Source of the DNA: Candidatus Thorarchaeota archaeon
Lineage (GTDB): Archaea; Asgardarchaeota; Thorarchaeia; Thorarchaeales; Thorarchaeaceae
Reading direction: 5' to 3'
NCBI GenBank assembly: GCA_048882485.1
Contig: JBHLRP010000037.1
Span: 1-30,752 of the forward strand
DNA: 30,752 nucleotides
Within the stretch, counting starts at the first letter, position 1, and each line of letters begins with the position of its first letter. The notes under the pieces are model-generated. The model did no database searches. It saw only the letters and a list, made by a program, of their open reading frames with translations, and was not told where the DNA came from. Made by a program: the position numbers and the translations under genes. This document shows, one piece after another, positions 17,357 to 27,160 of this stretch.

Positions 17357-18604
17357 TTGAATATCATGAAAAAGGTAACGGAGCAAATGAGAATGTTTGT
17401 GAGACAAGAAGTTCTGGATAGAATATACCCCGAGTTTCCTGCAAAGGAATACGAAGAACGGATCCGGCGGATGAGAGAATCAATGGAGAAGCATGAAATC
17501 GATGCGCTTCTGACAACTGATAAGAAGAACACGGAATACTTCACTGGGAGCATGGTCATGCTTGGCCCCTGGGTTTCAATCCTTTCATTGGATGCTGAAC
17601 CTGTTATCCTAATCCCGGCATTCCTAGCTGGTTCTGCAGAAAAGACTGCATGGGCAAGAAACATAAAGAAGAATCCAACAGCTCACATGAAAACAGATCC
17701 GATGTATTTTGCGAAGTTCATCGTTGAGAACTTCAAAGAGCTGGGACTGAGCAAGGGAACCATTGGATTGGAATATGGGGAGGATCTGGTTACCGGACTT
17801 CAGATTTCTGAGTTCGACTATGTGAGAAGCAATCTGCCGGACGCGAAGTTTGTTAGCGGTGAAGATGTCATATGGGATTGTAGAATGATCAAATCCAAGC
17901 TTGAACTTGAGAAAATGAAGAATGCAGCCGAGATTGCTATGGCTGGCTACAGCAATGCTCGGGAAGAAGTAAAGAAGGGTATGACTGAGATTGAGATTAG
18001 TGAAGTTTTCAAAAGAACATACGTAGAGGAACAGGCCAAGAGGAAGCATAATACTCAGGAGCTTGGAATCTTCAATATCAGGTCCGGCCCTGAGAGGTAT
18101 CACATGGCTGATTCATTCAATCAAGATCGGAAGGTCCAGGATGGAGAAACATTGGTAATGAATGTGGGTGCATGGTACAGAAGATACTATGCTAATTGGT
18201 CAAGAACAGCGTTCGTAGGAAAGCCAAAAGACGGGCATATGAAGGGACTCAAGGCTATTGAGAAGTGTTTCGAAGTGATAGCGGAGGAAACAGCCCCCGG
18301 GATTAAGGCAGGAGACCTCTACGATAAAGCAGTCGAACCCTTGAGAGACAGTTTTGGCTCCGGAGAGGTGTATGCCACAGTTGGCATTGGATGTGGATTA
18401 TATCCACATGAGCCGCCTTACATCGGAAAGGATCGAAAGGATATATTGCAGCCAGGAATGGTCTTCACTGTTGTCGCATGGTCCTATGACATCGTACCTG
18501 ATGGACTCGGCATCTTGGGATTTGAACACGAGTTTGTTGTTACCGAATCAGGCAATAGACCAATTGTACCCTTTGAGGACGAATTGCTATGGGTCTTAGA
18601 CTAG
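17357..18604 (+). CDS. M24 (pita-bread fold) hydrolase with creatinase-type N-domain, metal ligands degenerate
   Basis: EYEERIRRMRESM..IDALL N-domain; RMIKS..ELEKM, GMTE.EI, HEPP, LQPGMVFT. Real start is probably ATG 17387 or 17393. Confidence 0.85.
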   Translation: MNIMKKVTEQMRMFVRQEVLDRIYPEFPAKEYEERIRRMRESMEKHEIDALLTTDKKNTEYFTGSMVMLGPWVSILSLDAEPVILIPAFLAGSAEKTAWARNIKKNPTAHMKTDPMYFAKFIVENFKELGLSKGTIGLEYGEDLVTGLQISEFDYVRSNLPDAKFVSGEDVIWDCRMIKSKLELEKMKNAAEIAMAGYSNAREEVKKGMTEIEISEVFKRTYVEEQAKRKHNTQELGIFNIRSGPERYHMADSFNQDRKVQDGETLVMNVGAWYRRYYANWSRTAFVGKPKDGHMKGLKAIEKCFEVIAEETAPGIKAGDLYDKAVEPLRDSFGSGEVYATVGIGCGLYPHEPPYIGKDRKDILQPGMVFTVVAWSYDIVPDGLGILGFEHEFVVTESGNRPIVPFEDELLWVLD

Positions 18605-18646
18605 TCACAGTGAGTCCGCAATTCATAAATCATAGGTGGTGTAAAA

Positions 18647-19066
18647 ATGAAGAAAATCGAGCTTGAATTCAAGGACAGCACGGTCAAGAGTATCGGGGTT
18701 CTACTGGAAAAGGATGCTCCAGAAACATGCAAAGCCTTTTGGGATGCACTTCCGCTTGAAAACGAAATGGTTCATTCATCGTGGTCTGGAGAAGCCATAA
18801 TTGCACATCCATGTGGCGTAAAAGTGGGTGCAGATTTCCCTCAAGAGAATAAGACAATCTTCGTTGGCCCGGGAGAACTTACAATGGAAACAAATGTGGA
18901 GGAGCTAATGATATTCTATGGAAGGGGCCATCCGCGTTGGAGAATGGGTCCTATTCCCATGAGTGTTTTTGGCAAGATTGTAGATGGGCTGGAGGACTTC
19001 GCAGAACAGTGCAAGAGGCTCCCGAAGGAAGGATCAAAAGTCCTGATAATCAGAAGGAAGGAATAA
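18647..19066 (+). CDS. DUF3830 family protein (cyclophilin-like fold)
   Basis: LLEKDAPETCKAFWDALPLE..HSSWSGE, EN.T...PGE, IFYGR, VFGKIVDGL; good RBS. Confidence 0.8.
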   Translation: MKKIELEFKDSTVKSIGVLLEKDAPETCKAFWDALPLENEMVHSSWSGEAIIAHPCGVKVGADFPQENKTIFVGPGELTMETNVEELMIFYGRGHPRWRMGPIPMSVFGKIVDGLEDFAEQCKRLPKEGSKVLIIRRKE

Positions 19067-20018
19067 TCTCTTTCCCAAGGACCTTCACGGTATCCAGGAT
19101 GTCAGAGAGTGTGCCAAATCTGAGGCAACAGATTTCATCAATATGCTGCTCGAGACTTTCAATCTGAACAATGCATTGACTGGAATTCCCTGCAATTGCA
19201 AACTCGCGAACCAAATCATCAGTGACCATTTCGGCACCCTTTGATCTATCAGTCCTCATTGCGTCTGCAATCTGCCTGATTAGCGCCTTAGATTCTGTCA
19301 ATTCAATTGCATACGAAGGTGTTGTTGGAATGGATAACGCTACAACAGGTTTCACTGCATCAATATTGCCATCTTCTGATATATGCATTGGAACATTATC
19401 GACGACTTCAATTTTGCTTCTCTTTGATTTCCTCAAGCCTTCCTCTACCTTCTCCAGACAAAGCAATTGAGCTTCAAATGGAGGAGTGATTATAATCCCA
19501 TCAGCCATTTCTCCTGCCAGCTTTGATAGAACTGGTCCCCGTGTTCCTACAAAGAGCGGAATGGATACCGGATCGAATATGCGGACTCCCTTCAGACGCA
19601 CGATTTTCCCATCATATTCTACTATGTCACCTTGAAACAAGGTGCGAAGCATGTCTATTGATTCCCTGACTGCTGTAACTGGCCGGTCCCACATCTCGAT
19701 CTCTAATGGCCTAAGAGGCAATGTTCCACCAGCACCCATTCCTAGGATAATTCTATCTCCACAAAGCTCAGCAAGCGTGGCAGCTGCAACACCAATATTC
19801 GCTGCATATCGAGAATATGGGTTTGAAACGCCACAACCTATTCGAATGGTTTCAGTACCTTGACTTATTGCTGCCATCGTTATGAAAGGATCTCTCCAAT
19901 TTGTTGCTGGCGTATGATCAGCAATCCACACTGAATTGAACTCATTTTTCTCTAATGCTTGTGCTATCTCAACCATTTCCGTGATTGGGAGGTTTCCCAC
20001 GGCTAAACCAAACTTCAT
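19050..20018 (-). CDS. LLM-class, probably F420-dependent oxidoreductase, Mer (methylene-H4MPT reductase)-like
   Basis: MKFGL.., VWIADH, TETIRIGCGVSNPYSR, ATLAEL..DR..LGMGAG, GTRGP..KLAGEMADG parallel Mer motifs. ATG start at 20018. Confidence 0.8.
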   Translation of the reverse strand: MKFGLAVGNLPITEMVEIAQALEKNEFNSVWIADHTPATNWRDPFITMAAISQGTETIRIGCGVSNPYSRYAANIGVAAATLAELCGDRIILGMGAGGTLPLRPLEIEMWDRPVTAVRESIDMLRTLFQGDIVEYDGKIVRLKGVRIFDPVSIPLFVGTRGPVLSKLAGEMADGIIITPPFEAQLLCLEKVEEGLRKSKRSKIEVVDNVPMHISEDGNIDAVKPVVALSIPTTPSYAIELTESKALIRQIADAMRTDRSKGAEMVTDDLVREFAIAGNSSQCIVQIESLEQHIDEICCLRFGTLSDILDTVKVLGKEIIPSF

Positions 20019-20226
20019 TGCTTTTCCCCCATGATATTTGCATTCTATTTGAATTGTGACATGTATACTTGCATTCACACCAATAAATCTGATGGTTTAT
20101 TCAGCATATATACATTAATTCTCTGATTTCCTGTTTCTCCTGTGAGCATTTGGTTCTTCTAATTCCATATGAAAACATCTATGAGAGGATACAGCTCTTT
20201 TGCTAGGAATCACAGATCATCACATC

Positions 20227-21606
20227 CTAAAAGACGAACTCGATACCAATATCTGCAATTTCATTCCTAATTGTCTCATAGATATGAAAGGCCTCTTTGG
20301 ATGGTAGCCCGGTTACAGGATTACAGCATTCCTGGAAACGCTTCCCTGCAGGCGGGGCTTCAATCTGATCAATGTATCGTGGAACTATCTGCCTTACCAT
20401 TTCATTTGCATCGGCTCGGGTGACTCCTGCTGAAGAGTATGCCACCTCGGATATGAACATTGGTTCAATAGGAGTCAAGAAGTCAATCTTTTTCCCCTTG
20501 GCAACAGCACCTGTTTCTATTGAAGCGCCTGAAGCTACTGTGGCGATATATCCCGCGGCGAATTCTCGGAGTGCCATTTCGGTACAAGGACCAGCTGCAG
20601 TATATGGATAATATAGAGTAGGCACATTAGTATTCCTCGTTGCAGCCTGTGCATATGTGCTGGCTATCCATATTAGCTGAGGCATTGAACTAGCAACATG
20701 ATTAATGTGTATTGGAAAGAAGAGTGTCCAGCATGCACCATAGACGAGTATCGCCATTATTTGAGCAGCTGCACATGTGACTGCGGTACCCTCTGCACCT
20801 CCTGAATATCCTCCATAGATAGGTCCGAAAAGACCTGCAATTGGAAGTCCCAGGGCCTGGAGAAATGTTGCACGATTCATTAAGTCGAAATCCGTTTTCA
20901 TCTCTGTAAGTTCAGCAATCATGTAGCTATCTGATTTTCTTAACCCATATTGAGGATGAATGCCGGATGCTAGGGCGACTGATGATTCTGCTGTACCAAT
21001 TGCACTCATTATGGGCAATCCCGGCCGTCCAGCTCTTCTCAGGGCTTCCCTTCCCAGAATAACGGTTCTAATCGAACCCTCTATTTCCAAGGGTGACCGT
21101 GTTCTAATGTCTATACCATCAATATTTGCCAAACAAGGAGTGGTTATTGCATCTGCTATGGGTATCATGGTGGCTGCTCTTTCGACCAGAAGGGTGAAGA
21201 TTCTTTCGTCAGAAACCGGAGAGCCACCTGCACCAGCGAAAATCCAGGGATGGCTTTTTGATTCGGGACGTCTAGGAATTAGAGTTCCCTGCTCAAGCCC
21301 TTCACCAAAAACAGTCTGCTGATGCGAAAGTCGAATTTCCTTCCTAATCTCCTTTTCTTCAAACCCGATAATTCTCTCAGTATCTTTGCAGTACACCCCA
21401 ATATGCGATATTAGATCAAAACCAGCTTTGAATATTGAATCGGCTAAACCGTCGTCAGAGGGAACAATGAATTCAGGATCATAACTAATCCCGTATTCGC
21501 GAACTAATTCTTGCACTTTGGGAGCAAATAGGCGGACATCGAAATCCCTTTCTAGATATGGCCTCCCTTCAAGAGCGCGCCTAGTTATTTCAATCATTGG
21601 TATCAT
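20227..21606 (-). CDS. mtmB: Monomethylamine:corrinoid methyltransferase (MtmB) homologue lacking pyrrolysine
   Basis: 459 aa from ATG 21606 (RBS AAGGAGG). Motifs GVYCKDTERII, GSPVS, AGRPG, PIYGGYSGG.E, AGPCTEM, APPAGKRFQEC match MtmB. No in-frame TAG. Confidence 0.88.
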   Translation of the reverse strand: MIPMIEITRRALEGRPYLERDFDVRLFAPKVQELVREYGISYDPEFIVPSDDGLADSIFKAGFDLISHIGVYCKDTERIIGFEEKEIRKEIRLSHQQTVFGEGLEQGTLIPRRPESKSHPWIFAGAGGSPVSDERIFTLLVERAATMIPIADAITTPCLANIDGIDIRTRSPLEIEGSIRTVILGREALRRAGRPGLPIMSAIGTAESSVALASGIHPQYGLRKSDSYMIAELTEMKTDFDLMNRATFLQALGLPIAGLFGPIYGGYSGGAEGTAVTCAAAQIMAILVYGACWTLFFPIHINHVASSMPQLIWIASTYAQAATRNTNVPTLYYPYTAAGPCTEMALREFAAGYIATVASGASIETGAVAKGKKIDFLTPIEPMFISEVAYSSAGVTRADANEMVRQIVPRYIDQIEAPPAGKRFQECCNPVTGLPSKEAFHIYETIRNEIADIGIEFVF

Positions 21607-21610
21607 CGAG

Positions 21611-22258
21611 CTAGCTCCTCCTTTCCTCAATTAGCTTTGTAGCAAGCGCTATAGCCGCAGGGGCAGTTTCTGCAAAGCCATCTGCTCCAATTTTATCTGC
21701 CCACTCTCTAGTTGTGGCTCCGCCTCCTACCATAACTATAAACTTCTGGCGATTTCCAGTTCCTTCCAGATATTCTATGACATCCTTTTGCCCTCCAAGG
21801 GTTGTTGTCATTAAAGCAGACACAGCAATGATATCCGCCTTGAAGTGCTCGGCTTCCTGGATGAATCGTGAAGGTGGAACGTCGACTCCGAGATCACTCA
21901 CTTCAAATCCGTTGGCAAGAAGCAAGGATTTCAATATGTCTTTACCAATATTATGAATGTCCCCCTTTACCGTTCCGAGGACAACCTTCCCCTTGAAGGG
22001 TATATCACTTCCTTCAATATGCGGAAGAACAGCTTCCAGTCCAGCAACCATGGCTTCTCCCGATAGAACTAGATCAGCGAGATAAAGCTCGGATTTCGTG
22101 AATAGATTTCCCACTTCCCTCGCACCAGCTGATATTCCCTTCTCCAGAATGTCAAGAGGTTTCACTCCAGATTTCAGACAATCCTTTGCATATTTCACAA
22201 CCAATTCACTATCACCCATTATGACAGATTCCCTCAAGTTCTGCATTTTGTCATCCAT
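21611..22258 (-). CDS. Cognate corrinoid (B12-binding) protein, MtmC/MtbC-like
   Basis: Cap domain followed by GTVKGDIHNIGK (DxHxxG), DLGVDVP, SALMTTT, VMVGGG. RBS GAGGTG before ATG 22258; directly upstream of mtmB. Confidence 0.92.
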   Translation of the reverse strand: MDDKMQNLRESVIMGDSELVVKYAKDCLKSGVKPLDILEKGISAGAREVGNLFTKSELYLADLVLSGEAMVAGLEAVLPHIEGSDIPFKGKVVLGTVKGDIHNIGKDILKSLLLANGFEVSDLGVDVPPSRFIQEAEHFKADIIAVSALMTTTLGGQKDVIEYLEGTGNRQKFIVMVGGGATTREWADKIGADGFAETAPAAIALATKLIEERRS

Positions 22259-22370
22259 GATTAGCACCTCTCTTTGATGTTTGAATCCTATTCAACCACC
22301 AATTCTTCCATTAAACTAGCTAAATTATGAGCAGTCTTTAATCAATCGATATTTATCATGCAGAATATTC

Positions 22371-22388
22371 AAAAAACCTTATTAAGAT
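22371..22388 (+). promoter_or_regulatory. Putative BRE/TATA promoter of VOC paralogue 1 in a divergent intergenic region
   Basis: AAAAAACC-TTATTAAGAT; the same TATA 10-mer as at 5676-5685. Confidence 0.5.
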
Positions 22389-22439
22389 AATGCTCAACAT
22401 TCAAAAACAACAAAATAAAGCGACAGTGCGTGTTCTTAG

Positions 22440-22907
22440 ATGCTGGGAGTGTTTGATCATGTGGGCATCGTTGTTCGAGATATCGAAAAGGCATTAGGCT
22501 TCTATTCTGAGGTCCTTGGCTGGAAACTTCCTTCTAAAGGCCCATACTCGAAAATCCTCCATATGGACGTGCCAGGTCAAAGAATGAAATATGCGATGCT
22601 CTTAGCAGGGAGCAGATTTGTGGAGCTGATTGAGCCTGAGGAAGGAACTTGGCTGAGCTATCTGGAAGCAAAGGGTGAAGGTGCCATATGTGAATTGTGT
22701 GTTCTCGTTGATGATATCGATGAAGCCATTTGCATGCTGGAGCAGAGAGGACTAGTACAAATGGATTGGTCCAATAAGCGGCTCTCTGAGAAGTTTATGA
22801 CCACTCCATCCGGATCCAAGTGTTTCTATCTGCCAATAAAGGAAACTCTCGGAACATTGATAGAAGTCCTTCAGCGTCCTGCAAAGAAAATTGACGAACG
22901 TATGTAG
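22440..22907 (+). CDS. VOC family protein (methylmalonyl-CoA epimerase/glyoxalase-like), paralogue 1
   Basis: FDHVGIVVRDIEKA..FYSEVLG, VELIEP, YLEAKGEG, VDDI, GTLIEVLQ. Confidence 0.85.
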   Translation: MLGVFDHVGIVVRDIEKALGFYSEVLGWKLPSKGPYSKILHMDVPGQRMKYAMLLAGSRFVELIEPEEGTWLSYLEAKGEGAICELCVLVDDIDEAICMLEQRGLVQMDWSNKRLSEKFMTTPSGSKCFYLPIKETLGTLIEVLQRPAKKIDERM

Positions 22908-23041
22908 ACATAGCGAATAGCAGCCAGTAATGAAATATCAACTTCAGTAGACTTGGGAAAACCATAGATTAATAGGAAGCGGAGAGATAGAGCAAAGAAA
23001 AATCCGAATCCATTAGTCGATTCTGCAACGGTTGAAGAAAG

Positions 23042-23857
23042 ATGTTTAGACTTGCTGTTGGACAAATGAACCCACGAATAGGCGATACAAGAGGAAACAT
23101 GATAAAAATGGTTTCTCTTCTGGAATCTGCTGAGAAACAGGATGTCGATTTAATCGTCCTTCCTGAGTGTGCAAATTCCGGCTATGTATTTGAGAATCGA
23201 GAGGAAGTGTTGAGCCTCTCGGAGGAAATTCCAAACGGACCTTTCTCAAAGAAACTTGCATCATGGTCCAAGAATGGGAGTATGGTGATTGCAGGTCTGG
23301 TTGAAAAAACACCTGAAGGTCCATATGATTCTGCAGTTGCTTTCGGGAATGGCAAACATCTTGCTACTTACCGGAAAATCCATCTCTTTGGAAAGGAGAA
23401 GGAATGGTTTCTACCTGGGAACAAAGAGCCGCAATTAATTGAATTCAATGAGTATCGATTTGGTGTGATTATATGTTTTGACTGGGCTTTTCCTGAGCTC
23501 AGTAGAATCTTGTCCCTGAAAGGAGCACAAATATTAGCTCATCCTGCAAATCTTCTCTTGAGCTATTCAAATAGAGCGATGATAACGAGATCTATTGAGA
23601 ATCACATTTTTACTGCAACTTCGAGTCGTGTAGGCGAAGATAGGGGACTGAGATTCATTGGTGGTTCCCAAGTTACAGATCCAAGGGGGCACATATTATT
23701 CAGAATGGATTATGAAGAGGAAGGAGTTGCATGGGTAGATATAGAACCAAGTGCAGCAGACAGCAAGATAATCCGAGGAAATGATATTGTGAAGGACGCA
23801 AATGTCTTGGTGGACAGAAGACCAGATCTATATGGTCGAATTACTGAGCCTGAATAA
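23042..23857 (+). CDS. Nitrilase / carbon-nitrogen hydrolase family protein
   Basis: Glu-Lys-Cys triad in LPECANSGY, YRKIHLF and ICFDWAFPE; HPANL; DRRPDLY. Confidence 0.9.
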   Translation: MFRLAVGQMNPRIGDTRGNMIKMVSLLESAEKQDVDLIVLPECANSGYVFENREEVLSLSEEIPNGPFSKKLASWSKNGSMVIAGLVEKTPEGPYDSAVAFGNGKHLATYRKIHLFGKEKEWFLPGNKEPQLIEFNEYRFGVIICFDWAFPELSRILSLKGAQILAHPANLLLSYSNRAMITRSIENHIFTATSSRVGEDRGLRFIGGSQVTDPRGHILFRMDYEEEGVAWVDIEPSAADSKIIRGNDIVKDANVLVDRRPDLYGRITEPE

Positions 23858-23923
23858 TCTCAACCGAATTCACTGAAAAAGCCCTTAAAGCGCCATTGAG
23901 AGAAGCCATGGATTAGGAAAGCC

Positions 23924-24397
23924 CTAGGAAGGAGAGAGCTCTAGCCGGGGATCCTCCTTCATGACTTTCGCTATGACTTGTGTATTCAATTGCCTTATTC
24001 CTTCTATCTTCAGGATTTGCTCAATAATTTTCATGAATGCATCTCGATCTCTTGACCTGGTCATAATCAGAAAGTCACAATCGCCCAGAATCATATATAC
24101 ACCCCACACCCCAGAAATCTTGGATAGTTCCTCGCCTATCTTGTCATAGGAACCCTTGGCAAGATTTATGCTAATTCTAATAGATGCAATGTAGTCGATA
24201 TCCATCTTTATAGGGTCTATTTTCGCATAGTATCCGTCTATGATCTCTGCCCTTTCAAGACGTCTTAGTCGATAGTGAGTTGTAGATGTAGGGGCTCCCA
24301 CTTTCTCTGCAATCTCCTGCAAGGAGGACCTACATTCCTTTTGGAGTTCTACGAGAATTGCGATATCCAGCTCATCTAGAAGTGTCTTTGCAGGCAT
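23924..24397 (-). CDS. Lrp/AsnC family transcriptional regulator
   Basis: LDELDIAILVELQKECRSSLQEIAEKVG..ST.HYRLRRLE..II.GY HTH, plus a RAM domain (VYMILGDCDF). Confidence 0.92.
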   Translation of the reverse strand: MPAKTLLDELDIAILVELQKECRSSLQEIAEKVGAPTSTTHYRLRRLERAEIIDGYYAKIDPIKMDIDYIASIRISINLAKGSYDKIGEELSKISGVWGVYMILGDCDFLIMTRSRDRDAFMKIIEQILKIEGIRQLNTQVIAKVMKEDPRLELSPS

Positions 24398-24718
24398 TCC
24401 AAACCACATTCCTTTGAGTTTGCTTCTGCATGTATGAGATAAAAATGCTCTGAAGCCTTATGGTGTTGTCACGTTTCATTCAAATCTACCTCGATATTAC
24501 TTCTCTATTAAGTCAAAATCCCTCAACGACTACATCTGTCAATCCCGGGTTGTTTGACTTATCTGAGGAGCAATTTAAATCCTGTCTCTTATTTTCCTTC
24601 ACCATTTCAATCATTTATTCATTGTATAGGCACGATTCCTGCATGGGATTCAAACTGTAATAACCCTTTTTAGATGAATTGCTAAATAACAGCAAAGCAA
24701 TTTCAAAAGAATGGTGCG

Positions 24719-25180
24719 ATGAAGATGCTTGGTATCTTTGATCATATCGGAATCGTTGTCAGTGATATTGAAAAGGCGATTGAATTCTATTCTGAAGTCC
24801 TAGGTTGGAATCTTCCCAGTGAAGGTCCCTATTCAAGAATCTTAAATGTTAATATTCCTGGAGAGAAGATTAGGTACGTGATGCTTTCATCAGGAGACAC
24901 CTATCTGGAGCTTATTGAACCGCAAGAAGGAGTATGGATGGAATATTTGGAAGAAAAAGGTGAAGGGGCAATTTGCGAGCTGTGTGTTCTAGTAGACGAT
25001 ATTAAGGCCGCCAGAAGCATCATCGAAAGCAAAGGAATATGTCCTTGTGATAGATTCGGAAATCCATTGAAGGATGAATTTGAAGAAGCCCCCTCTGGAT
25101 CAAGATATTTCTATCTCTCTTCTGAAGACTCCTTTGGAACATGGATTGAGATTCTTGAGAGACCCTGGCTGAATCAATAA
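24719..25180 (+). CDS. VOC family protein, paralogue 2
   Basis: Aligns without gaps to paralogue 1 (85/147 identical by hand count) and has the same motifs. Confidence 0.85.
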   Translation: MKMLGIFDHIGIVVSDIEKAIEFYSEVLGWNLPSEGPYSRILNVNIPGEKIRYVMLSSGDTYLELIEPQEGVWMEYLEEKGEGAICELCVLVDDIKAARSIIESKGICPCDRFGNPLKDEFEEAPSGSRYFYLSSEDSFGTWIEILERPWLNQ

Positions 25181-25201
25181 TTCATTTATATATGCAAATC
25201 G

Positions 25202-26182
25202 ATGGAGGAAGGGCAATTGCTGGTAGAGAAGGAAAGATTAGTTGAGCTATATGCAACCACTTTAAAAATTCGCTTATTCGAAGAGAAGGTTTGGGAACTT
25301 TTCAGTCAGAATCTCATTCCGGGAACCGTTCATCTGTATTTGGGCCAGGAAGCAGTGGCAGCAGGTGTGATAAATGCGTTGGAGGACCGAGATTGGGTCC
25401 AGAGCACGCACCGTGGACATGGTCACGTTATTGCCAAAGGCGCCAACATGAATGCTGCGATGGCCGAACTGCTTGGACGACGAACGGGCTCTTGCAAGGG
25501 GAAGGGCGGGTCCATGCATATCACTGAATTTTCGGCGGGCGTTCTAGGTGCGACTGGCGTTGTAGCTTCAGGACTGCCAATTGCACTAGGAGCCGCATTG
25601 TCGGCAAAGTTTCGCAATACGGATGAAGTTGTTGCATGCTTTTTCGGTGATGGTGCAGCTAATAACGGTACCTTCGGCGAGTCCCTCAACATGTCAAGCA
25701 TATGGCAATTGCCAGTCATATGGGTAGTCGAGAACAATCTCTACGCGATGGGCACTCCTATCAAGATGATGTGTCCGAGTGCAGATATAGCGGTGCGAGC
25801 TGATGGATATTGTATTCCAAAAACTGTTGTTGACGGGAATAACGCACTCGAGGTCTATAAGGCCTCATTTGAAGCTGTGGAACGAGCGCGTCAGGGCAAG
25901 GGTCCTTTTCTCATAGAATGCAAAACATACCGATTGAAGGGTCATTCTCGATTCGATGCGGGCAAATATCGTCCTTCCGAAGAGGTAGAAGAGTGGGTGG
26001 AACGAGACGCTGTCGAAATAATGCTCAATATCGCCAGGCAGGAGAAAGCCCTTACAAAGGCAAAGGCTAATCGAATTCGAAAGAAAATTGAAGTTGAAGT
26101 CGAAGCTGCCGCCAAATTCGCATTGGAATCTGAAATTCCAGATTCGAGCGAAACATACACTGATGTCTTCACGGAGGCGTAA
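25202..26182 (+). CDS. ThDP-dependent dehydrogenase E1 alpha subunit (AcoA/PdhA-like)
   Basis: PGTVHLYLGQEA, STHRGHGH, GKGGSMH, ThDP motif GDGAANNG..ENN, TYRLKGHS. Confidence 0.92.
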   Translation: MEEGQLLVEKERLVELYATTLKIRLFEEKVWELFSQNLIPGTVHLYLGQEAVAAGVINALEDRDWVQSTHRGHGHVIAKGANMNAAMAELLGRRTGSCKGKGGSMHITEFSAGVLGATGVVASGLPIALGAALSAKFRNTDEVVACFFGDGAANNGTFGESLNMSSIWQLPVIWVVENNLYAMGTPIKMMCPSADIAVRADGYCIPKTVVDGNNALEVYKASFEAVERARQGKGPFLIECKTYRLKGHSRFDAGKYRPSEEVEEWVERDAVEIMLNIARQEKALTKAKANRIRKKIEVEVEAAAKFALESEIPDSSETYTDVFTEA

Positions 26183-26185
26183 AAG

Positions 26186-27160
26186 ATGCCGGAGATAACC
26201 TATAGGCAAGCCATCACAGAGGGACTCAGAGAAGAAATGAAGAGGGATGAAAATGTGTTTCTTATTGGGGAGGATATCGGCCGCAATTGGGGAGGCGCAT
26301 TTCAGGTAACTAAAGGTCTTGCTGAGGAATTTGGAGATGATAGAGTCATCGATTCTCCGATTTCTGAGAACTCATTCGTTGGTGCATGTGTTGGTGCAGC
26401 CATAACAGGATTGCGACCGGTTGCGGAGATAATGTTTGGAGACCTAATCTCTCTGGCAATCGACCAAATCTGCAACCAAGCTGCCAAGATGCGATATATG
26501 TTTGGCGGACAGACATCCGTTCCACTTGTTGTTAGGACTGTGTTTGGCGAGTTCAAGAATATGGCAGCTCAACATTCGCAATCACTTGAAGCTTGGTTCA
26601 TGCATACCCCAGGCCTCAAAATCGCAGTGCCTGCTTTTGCTTATGATGCAAAGGGGCTCATAAAATCTGCAATACGTGATGCGGACCCTGTGATGTTTTT
26701 CGAGCATAAAATGCTCTATGATAAGAAGGAAGATGTGCCTCAAGATGAGTATACGATTCCTTTCGGAGAAGCGAGTATTAGAAGAGAGGGGGATGATATC
26801 ACAATCTGGGCTACATTCTACATGCTTCACAAGGCATTGGAGGTAGCAAAAGAACTCGGTAGAGAAGGTATCAGCGTAGAAGTGGTGGATCCGCGAACTC
26901 TAGTACCGTTAGATAAACAGACTCTGATAGATTCAGTTAAGAAAACTGGTCGATTGGTTCTTGCGACGGAAGAAACAAGGACAGGCGCTACAACAGGTGA
27001 AGTTGCCGCGATTGTTCAGGAAGAAGCCTTTGACTGGTTGGATGCACCAATCATACGAATAAACGCACCAGATACACCAATCCCCTTTAGTCCCATTCTT
27101 GAAGAAACCTACATTCCGTCCAGTAAACAGCTGATCGCAGCAATTAAGAGTATCATCTAG
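26186..27160 (+). CDS. ThDP-dependent dehydrogenase E1 beta subunit (AcoB/PdhB-like)
   Basis: GEDIG, DSPISE, RPVAEIMF.D, AAQHSQSLE, FFEHK, DPRTLVPLD. Confidence 0.92.
   Translation: MPEITYRQAITEGLREEMKRDENVFLIGEDIGRNWGGAFQVTKGLAEEFGDDRVIDSPISENSFVGACVGAAITGLRPVAEIMFGDLISLAIDQICNQAAKMRYMFGGQTSVPLVVRTVFGEFKNMAAQHSQSLEAWFMHTPGLKIAVPAFAYDAKGLIKSAIRDADPVMFFEHKMLYDKKEDVPQDEYTIPFGEASIRREGDDITIWATFYMLHKALEVAKELGREGISVEVVDPRTLVPLDKQTLIDSVKKTGRLVLATEETRTGATTGEVAAIVQEEAFDWLDAPIIRINAPDTPIPFSPILEETYIPSSKQLIAAIKSII

Follow-up and report, generated by a model that had tools for sequence, protein, structure and literature searches.

Monomethylamine:corrinoid methyltransferase MtmB1 of Methanosarcina barkeri (structures 1L2Q, 1NTH and 1TV2), which works with the corrinoid protein MtmC, is a pyrrolysine-dependent member of the MtmB family, and its pyrrolysine (Pyl) is held to activate methylamine, a poor leaving group. 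Pyrrolysine-free homologues with other substrates have been described. MtqB of Methanococcoides methylutens Q3c, reported in 2026, demethylates tetramethylammonium and choline, retains trace monomethylamine activity, and has a pocket rich in sulfur and aromatic residues (PMC13044021). EmtA of Denitratisoma methylates estradiol (10.1101/714501), and AbeA of strain TUW77 demethylates 1-dehydrotestosterone at C-19 (PMC11912376). A pyrrolysine-free MtmB of Sifarchaeia was reported earlier and interpreted as a methylamine enzyme (PMC9723677). Here we analyzed a 30,752-nt stretch of Candidatus Thorarchaeota DNA (the window; positions 1 to 30,752 of contig JBHLRP010000037.1, assembly GCA_048882485.1), which encodes a pyrrolysine-free MtmB homologue directly behind a corrinoid protein gene. 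The methyl donor of this homologue is likely to be a compound other than monomethylamine. A preliminary description of this DNA, made from its letters alone, had stated that pyrrolysine-free MtmB homologues have no established substrate, which is outdated in view of MtqB, EmtA, and AbeA.

The gene pair and its active site

The features on which the comparison rests are the following.

21614–22258, minus strand: corrinoid protein gene, 215 amino acids (ATG at 22258; TAG stop at 21611–21613)
20230–21606, minus strand: MtmB-family methyltransferase gene (first methyltransferase, MT1), 459 amino acids, pyrrolysine-free (ATG at 21606; TAG stop at 20227–20229)
21007–21009, minus strand: ATG codon of Met200, at the pyrrolysine (Pyl202) column (phmmer, MAFFT, and hhalign agree)

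The MtmB-like open reading frame (ORF) had zero internal stops and an AGGAGG upstream of its ATG at 21606, and exactly 4 nt (ctcg) separated it from the stop of the corrinoid protein gene. Its product matched the Pfam family MtmB (PF05369) from end to end (profile positions 4–450 of 450; E = 2.8e-92; 310 bits against a cut-off of 25) and the M. barkeri structures 1L2Q and 1NTH in a PDB sequence search (E = 8e-62), while a search of NCBIfam models returned no match. An AlphaFold2 (AF2) model, built from an alignment of 146 family members, was confident throughout the chain (pLDDT 96.6). In Foldseek comparisons, the model had the MtmB TIM-barrel fold, with a TM-score of 0.95 and a root-mean-square deviation of 1.5 Å to 1L2Q/1NTH over 455 columns at 30% identity, compared to TM-scores of 0.46–0.57 and identities of 8–12% for MttB and MtgB structures.

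The corrinoid protein matched the Pfam domains B12-binding (1.5e-25) and B12-binding_2 (3.7e-14), with a four-helix cap and a Rossmann B12-binding domain, and carried the histidine-ligand motif D-I-H-N-I-G, which is of the DxHxxG type. Its top NCBIfam matches were MtgC- and MtbC-type corrinoid proteins, every one below its cut-off. A corrinoid gene lay directly upstream of the MtmB-like gene in 14 of 14 close Asgard loci and in 43 of 79 metagenome loci, and because this adjacency is conserved, gene order makes the pairing of MT1 with the corrinoid protein near certain. These results confirmed that the MtmB-family gene is real, intact, and paired, as the preliminary description had claimed in reporting a full-length MtmB homologue without an in-frame TAG, a DxHxxG corrinoid gene 4 nt upstream, and a methyltransferase with its own corrinoid protein.

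At the pyrrolysine column, Met200 was found in three of three independent alignments (phmmer against PDB 1L2Q, MAFFT with a TAG-containing MtmB of Methanosarcinales (L061), and profile–profile hhalign), all of which also paired MtmB E229 with Met229 and E259 with Leu259. The counterpart of E205 was Glu207, after a four-residue insert, in the phmmer alignment, and Ile203 in the MAFFT and hhalign alignments; because this pairing depends on the alignment method, it is only likely that E205 has no equivalent in the window protein. The earlier claim that the acidic residues around pyrrolysine are gone thus stands for E229 and E259, which are replaced rather than retained relative to the M. barkeri structure, and is alignment-dependent for E205 (lost in two of three). 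The methionine codon read at 21009–21007 was correctly placed at the pyrrolysine position, and the strings AGRPGLPI-M-SAIGT, DSYMI, and AGLFGPIYGGY given with it were all found in the translation. The window protein therefore has neither the in-frame UAG at 202 nor the acidic E229 and E259 of the pyrrolysine-dependent MtmB (EC 2.1.1.248). Its pocket is hydrophobic and aromatic. Among the 282 family members sampled in the MAFFT alignment, 124 have Met at the pyrrolysine column.

Pyrrolysine machinery was not found in the genome bin of the window contig (3.96 Mb, 90.5% complete), where PylS, PylD, and tRNA-Pyl were sought and pylB and pylC were not searched: PylS had zero matches, the top PylD match scored 20.8 bits against a cut-off of 150, and tRNA-Pyl was not among the 19 tRNAs found by aragorn. 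This search, the structural comparison above, and the tree below had been proposed in the preliminary description. The 26 complete genes of the window end in TAG (14), TAA (7), or TGA (5), and TAG is the stop codon of both genes of the pair. Two Asgard genes listed with one TAG (L034 and L042) were rejected as pyrrolysine-containing MtmBs, the TAG being not gene-internal: once stops among the 8 N-terminal and 14 C-terminal residues had been trimmed, the remaining translation was stop-free. Likewise, an MttB homologue on contig C32 of the bin, flagged TGA/TAG, was rejected as stop-containing, being an uninterrupted ORF of 481 amino acids.

In sum of likeness, the window pair has in common with MtmB1/MtmC the whole-length fold, the GRPG, GGY, and AGPCTEM motifs, ~30% identity, and a corrinoid partner. 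It differs in the absence of UAG and pyrrolysine, in the replacement of E229 and E259, in that no pyl genes were found, in its separate major clade, and in its organism, a non-methanogen in whose bin McrA was not found.

Position in the MtmB family

To place the window protein, we built a tree of 289 sequences (FastTree, LG+gamma, midpoint rooted) from the best 120 matches, 150 library-wide representatives, Asgard genome matches, and reference sequences (Pyl-MtmB, MtqB, and EmtA; AbeA was left out). MtqB was represented by P0273, which is labelled M. methylutens and shares 78% identity with the homologue from strain AM1, as in PMC13044021, and EmtA by P0393 (locus tag B9N43_10325). Pyl-MtmB and MtqB formed one clade (n = 25, support 0.96), the EmtA clade (n = 9, support 1.0) lay beside it, and a larger group (n = 44, support 0.84) held all three. 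The window protein was placed in a separate superclade of 157 sequences (support 0.999), with Pyl-MtmB, MtqB, and EmtA all outside and with identities to it of 30%, 31–32%, and 24–26%, respectively.

Within the superclade, the window protein belonged to a block of ~130 sequences with the motif G-R-P-G-L-P-I-M-N, which was weakly supported in the final tree and had a support of 0.98 in an earlier tree (132 sequences). Methionine occupied the pyrrolysine column of this block almost without exception. Column 259 was E, D, C, L, or I, differing by subclade, and this variation suggests several specificities within the block. The nearest named relatives were from Thor-, Hermod-, Sif-, and Promethearchaeota (64–69% identity), followed by Bathyarchaeia (~50–57%), and no characterised close orthologue was found. 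Like the window protein, the homologues in its subclade (55–69%) have Met at the pyrrolysine and E229 columns and a corrinoid gene directly upstream. Pyrrolysine-free MtmB homologues are numerous, with 922 representative clusters matching at E ≤ 0.001. The window gene is a member of a large branch of the family that had been recognised before.

With MtqB/MtqC, the window pair shares a pyrrolysine-free MtmB-family MT1, a corrinoid protein of its own, and a non-acidic pocket. However, MtqB groups with Pyl-MtmB, and its pocket motif is VDGCMCP, compared to IAGLFGP in the window protein. Column 259 is C in 11 of 11 members of the MtqB clade, which read G-C-M-C-P before GGY where the window protein reads G-L-F-G-P; the latter thus has neither the clade position nor the conserved Met and Cys pocket residues of MtqB. 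The acceptor route differs as well, since MtqB serves coenzyme M via MtbA in a methanogen. In Methanosarcina sp. KYL-1, a 22-kb region (L065–L067, G301:C1, 326–348 kb) contained three pyrrolysine-free MtmB homologues with uninterrupted reading frames, one of them sister to the MtqB clade; this methanogen also has TAG-containing MtmB fragments.

EmtA (Denitratisoma sp. DHT3) and AbeA likewise combine a pyrrolysine-free MtmB-family catalytic subunit with an MtmC-like corrinoid protein, but their substrates are steroid C-methyl groups, and the window protein lies outside the EmtA clade. The MttB-superfamily enzymes MtgB, MtpB, MtcB, and MtyB follow the same logic, in which the loss of pyrrolysine is accompanied by the use of quaternary amines as donors, by a dedicated corrinoid protein, and by a second methyltransferase (MT2) to folate or pterin; they belong to a different family, as the low structural similarity to MttB and MtgB indicates.

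The characterised members Pyl-MtmB, MtqB, and EmtA thus all lie in one half of the tree, whereas the half of the window gene contains none, even though its genes are those associated with MtrH and the archaeal Wood–Ljungdahl pathway. Pyrrolysine-free MtmB homologues, including the relatives of the window protein, are annotated in databases as 'monomethylamine:corrinoid methyltransferase', and this routine annotation feeds claims of methylamine use by Asgard archaea and Bathyarchaeia. Because there is no characterised close orthologue, the label derives from family membership only, and for the window protein it is probably a mislabel. The inference of a different methyl donor in the preliminary description is, as a hypothesis, reasonable.

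Genomic context, second copy, and contig provenance

In relatives of the window protein, the pair occurs in three contexts. In a clade with 55–57% identity, the corrinoid and MtmB-like genes are followed by a co-directional MtrH gene in 13 loci, a convergent RamA/RACo activase gene lies beside the operon in 15 loci, and MttB-family genes are present in 24 loci. By its gene content, this locus would be a complete MT1–carrier–MT2–activase cassette delivering methyl groups to tetrahydromethanopterin (H4MPT). The common Asgard copy has an Opp/Dpp importer before it and an unknown 389-aa protein and an M20 peptidase after it. In six metagenome loci of a 51% clade, a Liv-type ABC importer, whose ATPases are 47–53% identical to those of the window, directly follows the pair, and is itself followed by a racemase-like protein, a luciferase-like monooxygenase (LLM) family oxidoreductase, and an amino-acid dehydrogenase. 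The 389-aa protein (L048, 11387–12553, minus strand, and 14 other Asgard loci; 47–89% identity) is encoded convergently and directly downstream of the common MtmB-like gene, had no Pfam or NCBIfam match, and has no gene in the window.

The window itself contains, beside the pair, the following context genes.

11972–17345, binding protein on the minus strand, two permeases and two ATPases on the plus strand: HAAT (Liv/Urt-type) ABC importer, candidate substrate importer (Pfam Peripla_BP_6, BPD_transp_2 twice, ABC_tran twice)
17357–19066, plus strand: M24-fold hydrolase and DUF3830 cyclophilin-like protein, in the importer operon (Pfam Peptidase_M24 and Creatinase_N; DUF3830)
19053–20018, minus strand: Mer-like luciferase-family (F420-type) oxidoreductase, ~210 nt downstream of the MtmB-like gene and co-directional with it (Pfam Bac_luciferase, 1.3e-43)

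All NCBIfam matches of the importer were below cut-off, and the PDB and NCBIfam matches of the binding protein and importer were generic for HAAT transport of amino acids, urea, or amides. Aligned to prolidase 1PV9, the M24 hydrolase (17357–18604, plus strand) has lost four of the five metal ligands (D209→N, D220→N, H284→I, and E313→A) and kept E327. Metal ligands are also lost in non-peptidase M24 enzymes such as creatinase.

The Mer-like protein scored 161 bits against the Mer model TIGR03555, below the cut-off of 348.7, compared to 443 bits for the true Mer of the bin on contig C3. The idea that the Mer-like gene is specifically linked to the methyltransferase was downgraded, because orthologues of that gene in another genus (52–53% identity) hold the same locus without an MtmB gene. 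In a distant subclade, a luciferase-family reductase again lies next to pyrrolysine-free MtmB genes: a genome of another Asgard family (G004) has a distant LLM oxidoreductase between two MtmB-like genes, in an island (L168, G004:C3, 6967–17634) that reads MtmB-like, LLM oxidoreductase, MtmB-like, corrinoid protein, MttB-like, and RACo.

The bin holds two MtmB-like genes, the window copy and one on contig C123, which is the common Asgard orthologue and is 68% identical to the window copy; the corrinoid genes upstream of the two are 66% identical to each other. In a collection of 5.8 billion proteins, the window copy had no match above 69% identity. Compared to its own subclade it shows three departures, Asn201→Ser (after Met200), Gly227→Ser, and Ile259→Leu, of which the first affects a site where Asn is conserved in at least 90% of the subclade, while almost all subclade-invariant columns are retained. 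The window copy is thus a divergent second copy, set apart from the common copy also by its Liv–M24–DUF3830–LLM locus in place of the Opp/Dpp importer.

The window contig (C37) showed no DNA-level synteny with 14 same-genus genomes and was the most atypical by tetranucleotide use among the 68 long contigs of the bin. Its GC content was 44.6%, compared to 46.3 ± 1.0% for the bin, i.e., 1.6 standard deviations lower. Its gene order recurred in a second genus of the same family (g13; genomes G143 and G215) at 51–80% protein identity. The genes in common are those for the binding protein, permeases, ATPases, M24 hydrolase, and DUF3830 protein and the convergent Mer-like gene, and the synteny continues through EamA, VOC, E1 alpha/beta, and CN-hydrolase genes. 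At the place of the corrinoid–MtmB pair, the g13 locus has a ferredoxin, an HdrB-like CCG protein, and a second EamA gene. Since this syntenic locus is without the pair, the pair reads as an add-on to a conserved importer–hydrolase locus. Contig C37 may be mis-binned, its source being a relative that has not been sampled, or may be an accessory island. In one of the g13 loci (L166, G143:C13, 840–19000, compared with window 11972–27160), we also observed an aldehyde:ferredoxin oxidoreductase gene between the permease and ATPase genes.

Three features are particular to the window: the divergent second copy, its Asn201→Ser exchange, and its insertion into the Liv–M24–DUF3830–LLM locus. The window adds this second genomic context for comparison, which alone is not enough to identify the substrate.

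Proposed function and alternatives

We consider it probable that the pair constitutes the MT1 and cognate corrinoid carrier of a pyrrolysine-free, three-component, B12-dependent methyl-transfer system, which takes its methyl group from a donor other than monomethylamine and passes it via MtrH to H4MPT. In this scheme, MT1 would bind the donor in its MtmB fold and methylate the Co(I) form of the carrier. The next step, to H4MPT, would fall to an MtrH-type second methyltransferase whose gene lies elsewhere in the genome; from H4MPT the methyl group would be oxidised or incorporated in acetyl-CoA. Oxidised Co(II) would be reactivated by a RamA/RACo ATP-dependent activase. The donor might enter the cell through the Liv-type ABC importer encoded nearby, and the metal-free M24 hydrolase could possibly release it. 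The bin encodes three MtrH, two RACo, five URO-D, and two uninterrupted MttB homologues. The MtrH/RACo cassettes of relatives, the importer contexts, the MtrH, RACo, and Mer genes of the bin, and the ligand loss of the M24 protein together make it likely that the pair is the donor-specific front end of a substrate-to-H4MPT route in a non-methanogen. Our inferences are the direction in which the methyl group moves, the role of H4MPT as acceptor in the window organism, and the substrate. As to the last, a quaternary or otherwise N-methylated amino-compound is a tentative suggestion, made because all characterised pyrrolysine-free amine methyltransferases set this precedent and because the pocket glutamates are replaced by Met, Leu, and aromatics. 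Identification of the substrate would show which methylated compound is taken up by abundant sediment archaea before methanogens can draw on it.

Several observations weigh against this proposal. In the g13 locus, the importer, M24, DUF3830, and Mer-like genes are present without an MtmB pair, and since the pair is an add-on, the window neighbours may serve another pathway. Neither MT2 nor reductive activase genes are in the window; MtrH and RACo are present elsewhere in the bin, and because C37 is its most atypical contig by tetranucleotide use, these partners may belong to a different organism. The superclade of 157 is without a biochemically characterised member, the closest characterised proteins being 24–32% identical. 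EmtA and AbeA show that the MtmB family is not limited to N-methyl donors (10.1101/714501; PMC11912376).

A donor that is not an amine is, on balance, unlikely. It could be an O-methyl compound (a methoxylated aromatic), an S-methyl compound (dimethylsulfoniopropionate or methanethiol), a halomethane, or a C-methyl compound as for AbeA, and the hydrophobic, aromatic pocket would suit such donors. Some bacterial Peripla_BP_6 binding proteins bind aromatic acids, which is also in favour of such a donor. The neighbours in three contexts, however, are amino-acid, peptide, or amide enzymes and importers. The handling of steroid C-methyl groups by EmtA and AbeA demonstrates that the fold admits such chemistry (10.1101/714501; PMC11912376), but the window protein is outside the EmtA clade at 24–26% identity, and the O-demethylases and halomethane enzymes known so far have other folds (PMC13222342, PMC10989822).

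We regard it as improbable that the Met-for-pyrrolysine superclade, and the window copy in particular, demethylates a secondary or tertiary N-methyl amino compound such as sarcosine or an N-methyl amino acid. In this variant, sarcosine would be released from creatine by the adjacent metal-free, 'creatinase-like' M24 hydrolase. If true, it would mean that a non-quaternary methylamine can be activated without pyrrolysine, would provide the anaerobic sarcosine/dimethylglycine demethylase that is still missing, and would tie Asgard archaea to the turnover of osmolyte-derived amines.

It is very improbable that the window protein is a true monomethylamine:corrinoid methyltransferase that works without pyrrolysine. 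Full-length family membership, the fold, and the database names of its relatives are consistent with such an activity, but Met stands in for pyrrolysine, Met and Leu stand in for two of the three acidic residues around it, the major clade differs from that of Pyl-MtmB, and the residue held to activate the poor methylamine leaving group is missing. The trace activity kept by MtqB is a further point in its favour (PMC13044021).

A biosynthetic direction, from methyl-H4MPT through the corrinoid to an acceptor molecule, has an equally slender chance: EmtA, with estradiol as its acceptor, provides a precedent in the family (10.1101/714501), but the pair adjoins importers and hydrolases rather than biosynthetic genes. 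Close relatives, moreover, are classical catabolic cassettes of MT1, corrinoid protein, MT2, and activase. In favour of this direction, methyl transfer by MtrH-type enzymes is reversible. That the window gene is merely a redundant or degenerating duplicate, lacking its own function, is hardly credible, for although it is a second copy 68% identical to that on C123 and carries a unique Asn201→Ser exchange at a conserved site, both genes are intact with 4-nt coupling and a ribosome-binding site, almost all subclade-invariant columns are retained, and the structure model is confident throughout.

Two further gene groups of the window were recorded. GcvPA/GcvPB-like genes (8763–11701, minus strand) are 38–40% identical to the other copy in the bin on contig C20 and are followed by an NAD-kinase-fold gene; these two features make it unlikely that they encode the housekeeping glycine decarboxylase. 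In view of the same identity values, the idea that sarcosine-derived glycine is disposed of by glycine cleavage was downgraded. Two VOC/glyoxalase-fold paralogues (22440–22907 and 24719–25177, plus strand; 58% identical) each head a unit, one with a CN-hydrolase gene and the other with E1 alpha/beta 2-oxoacid dehydrogenase genes.

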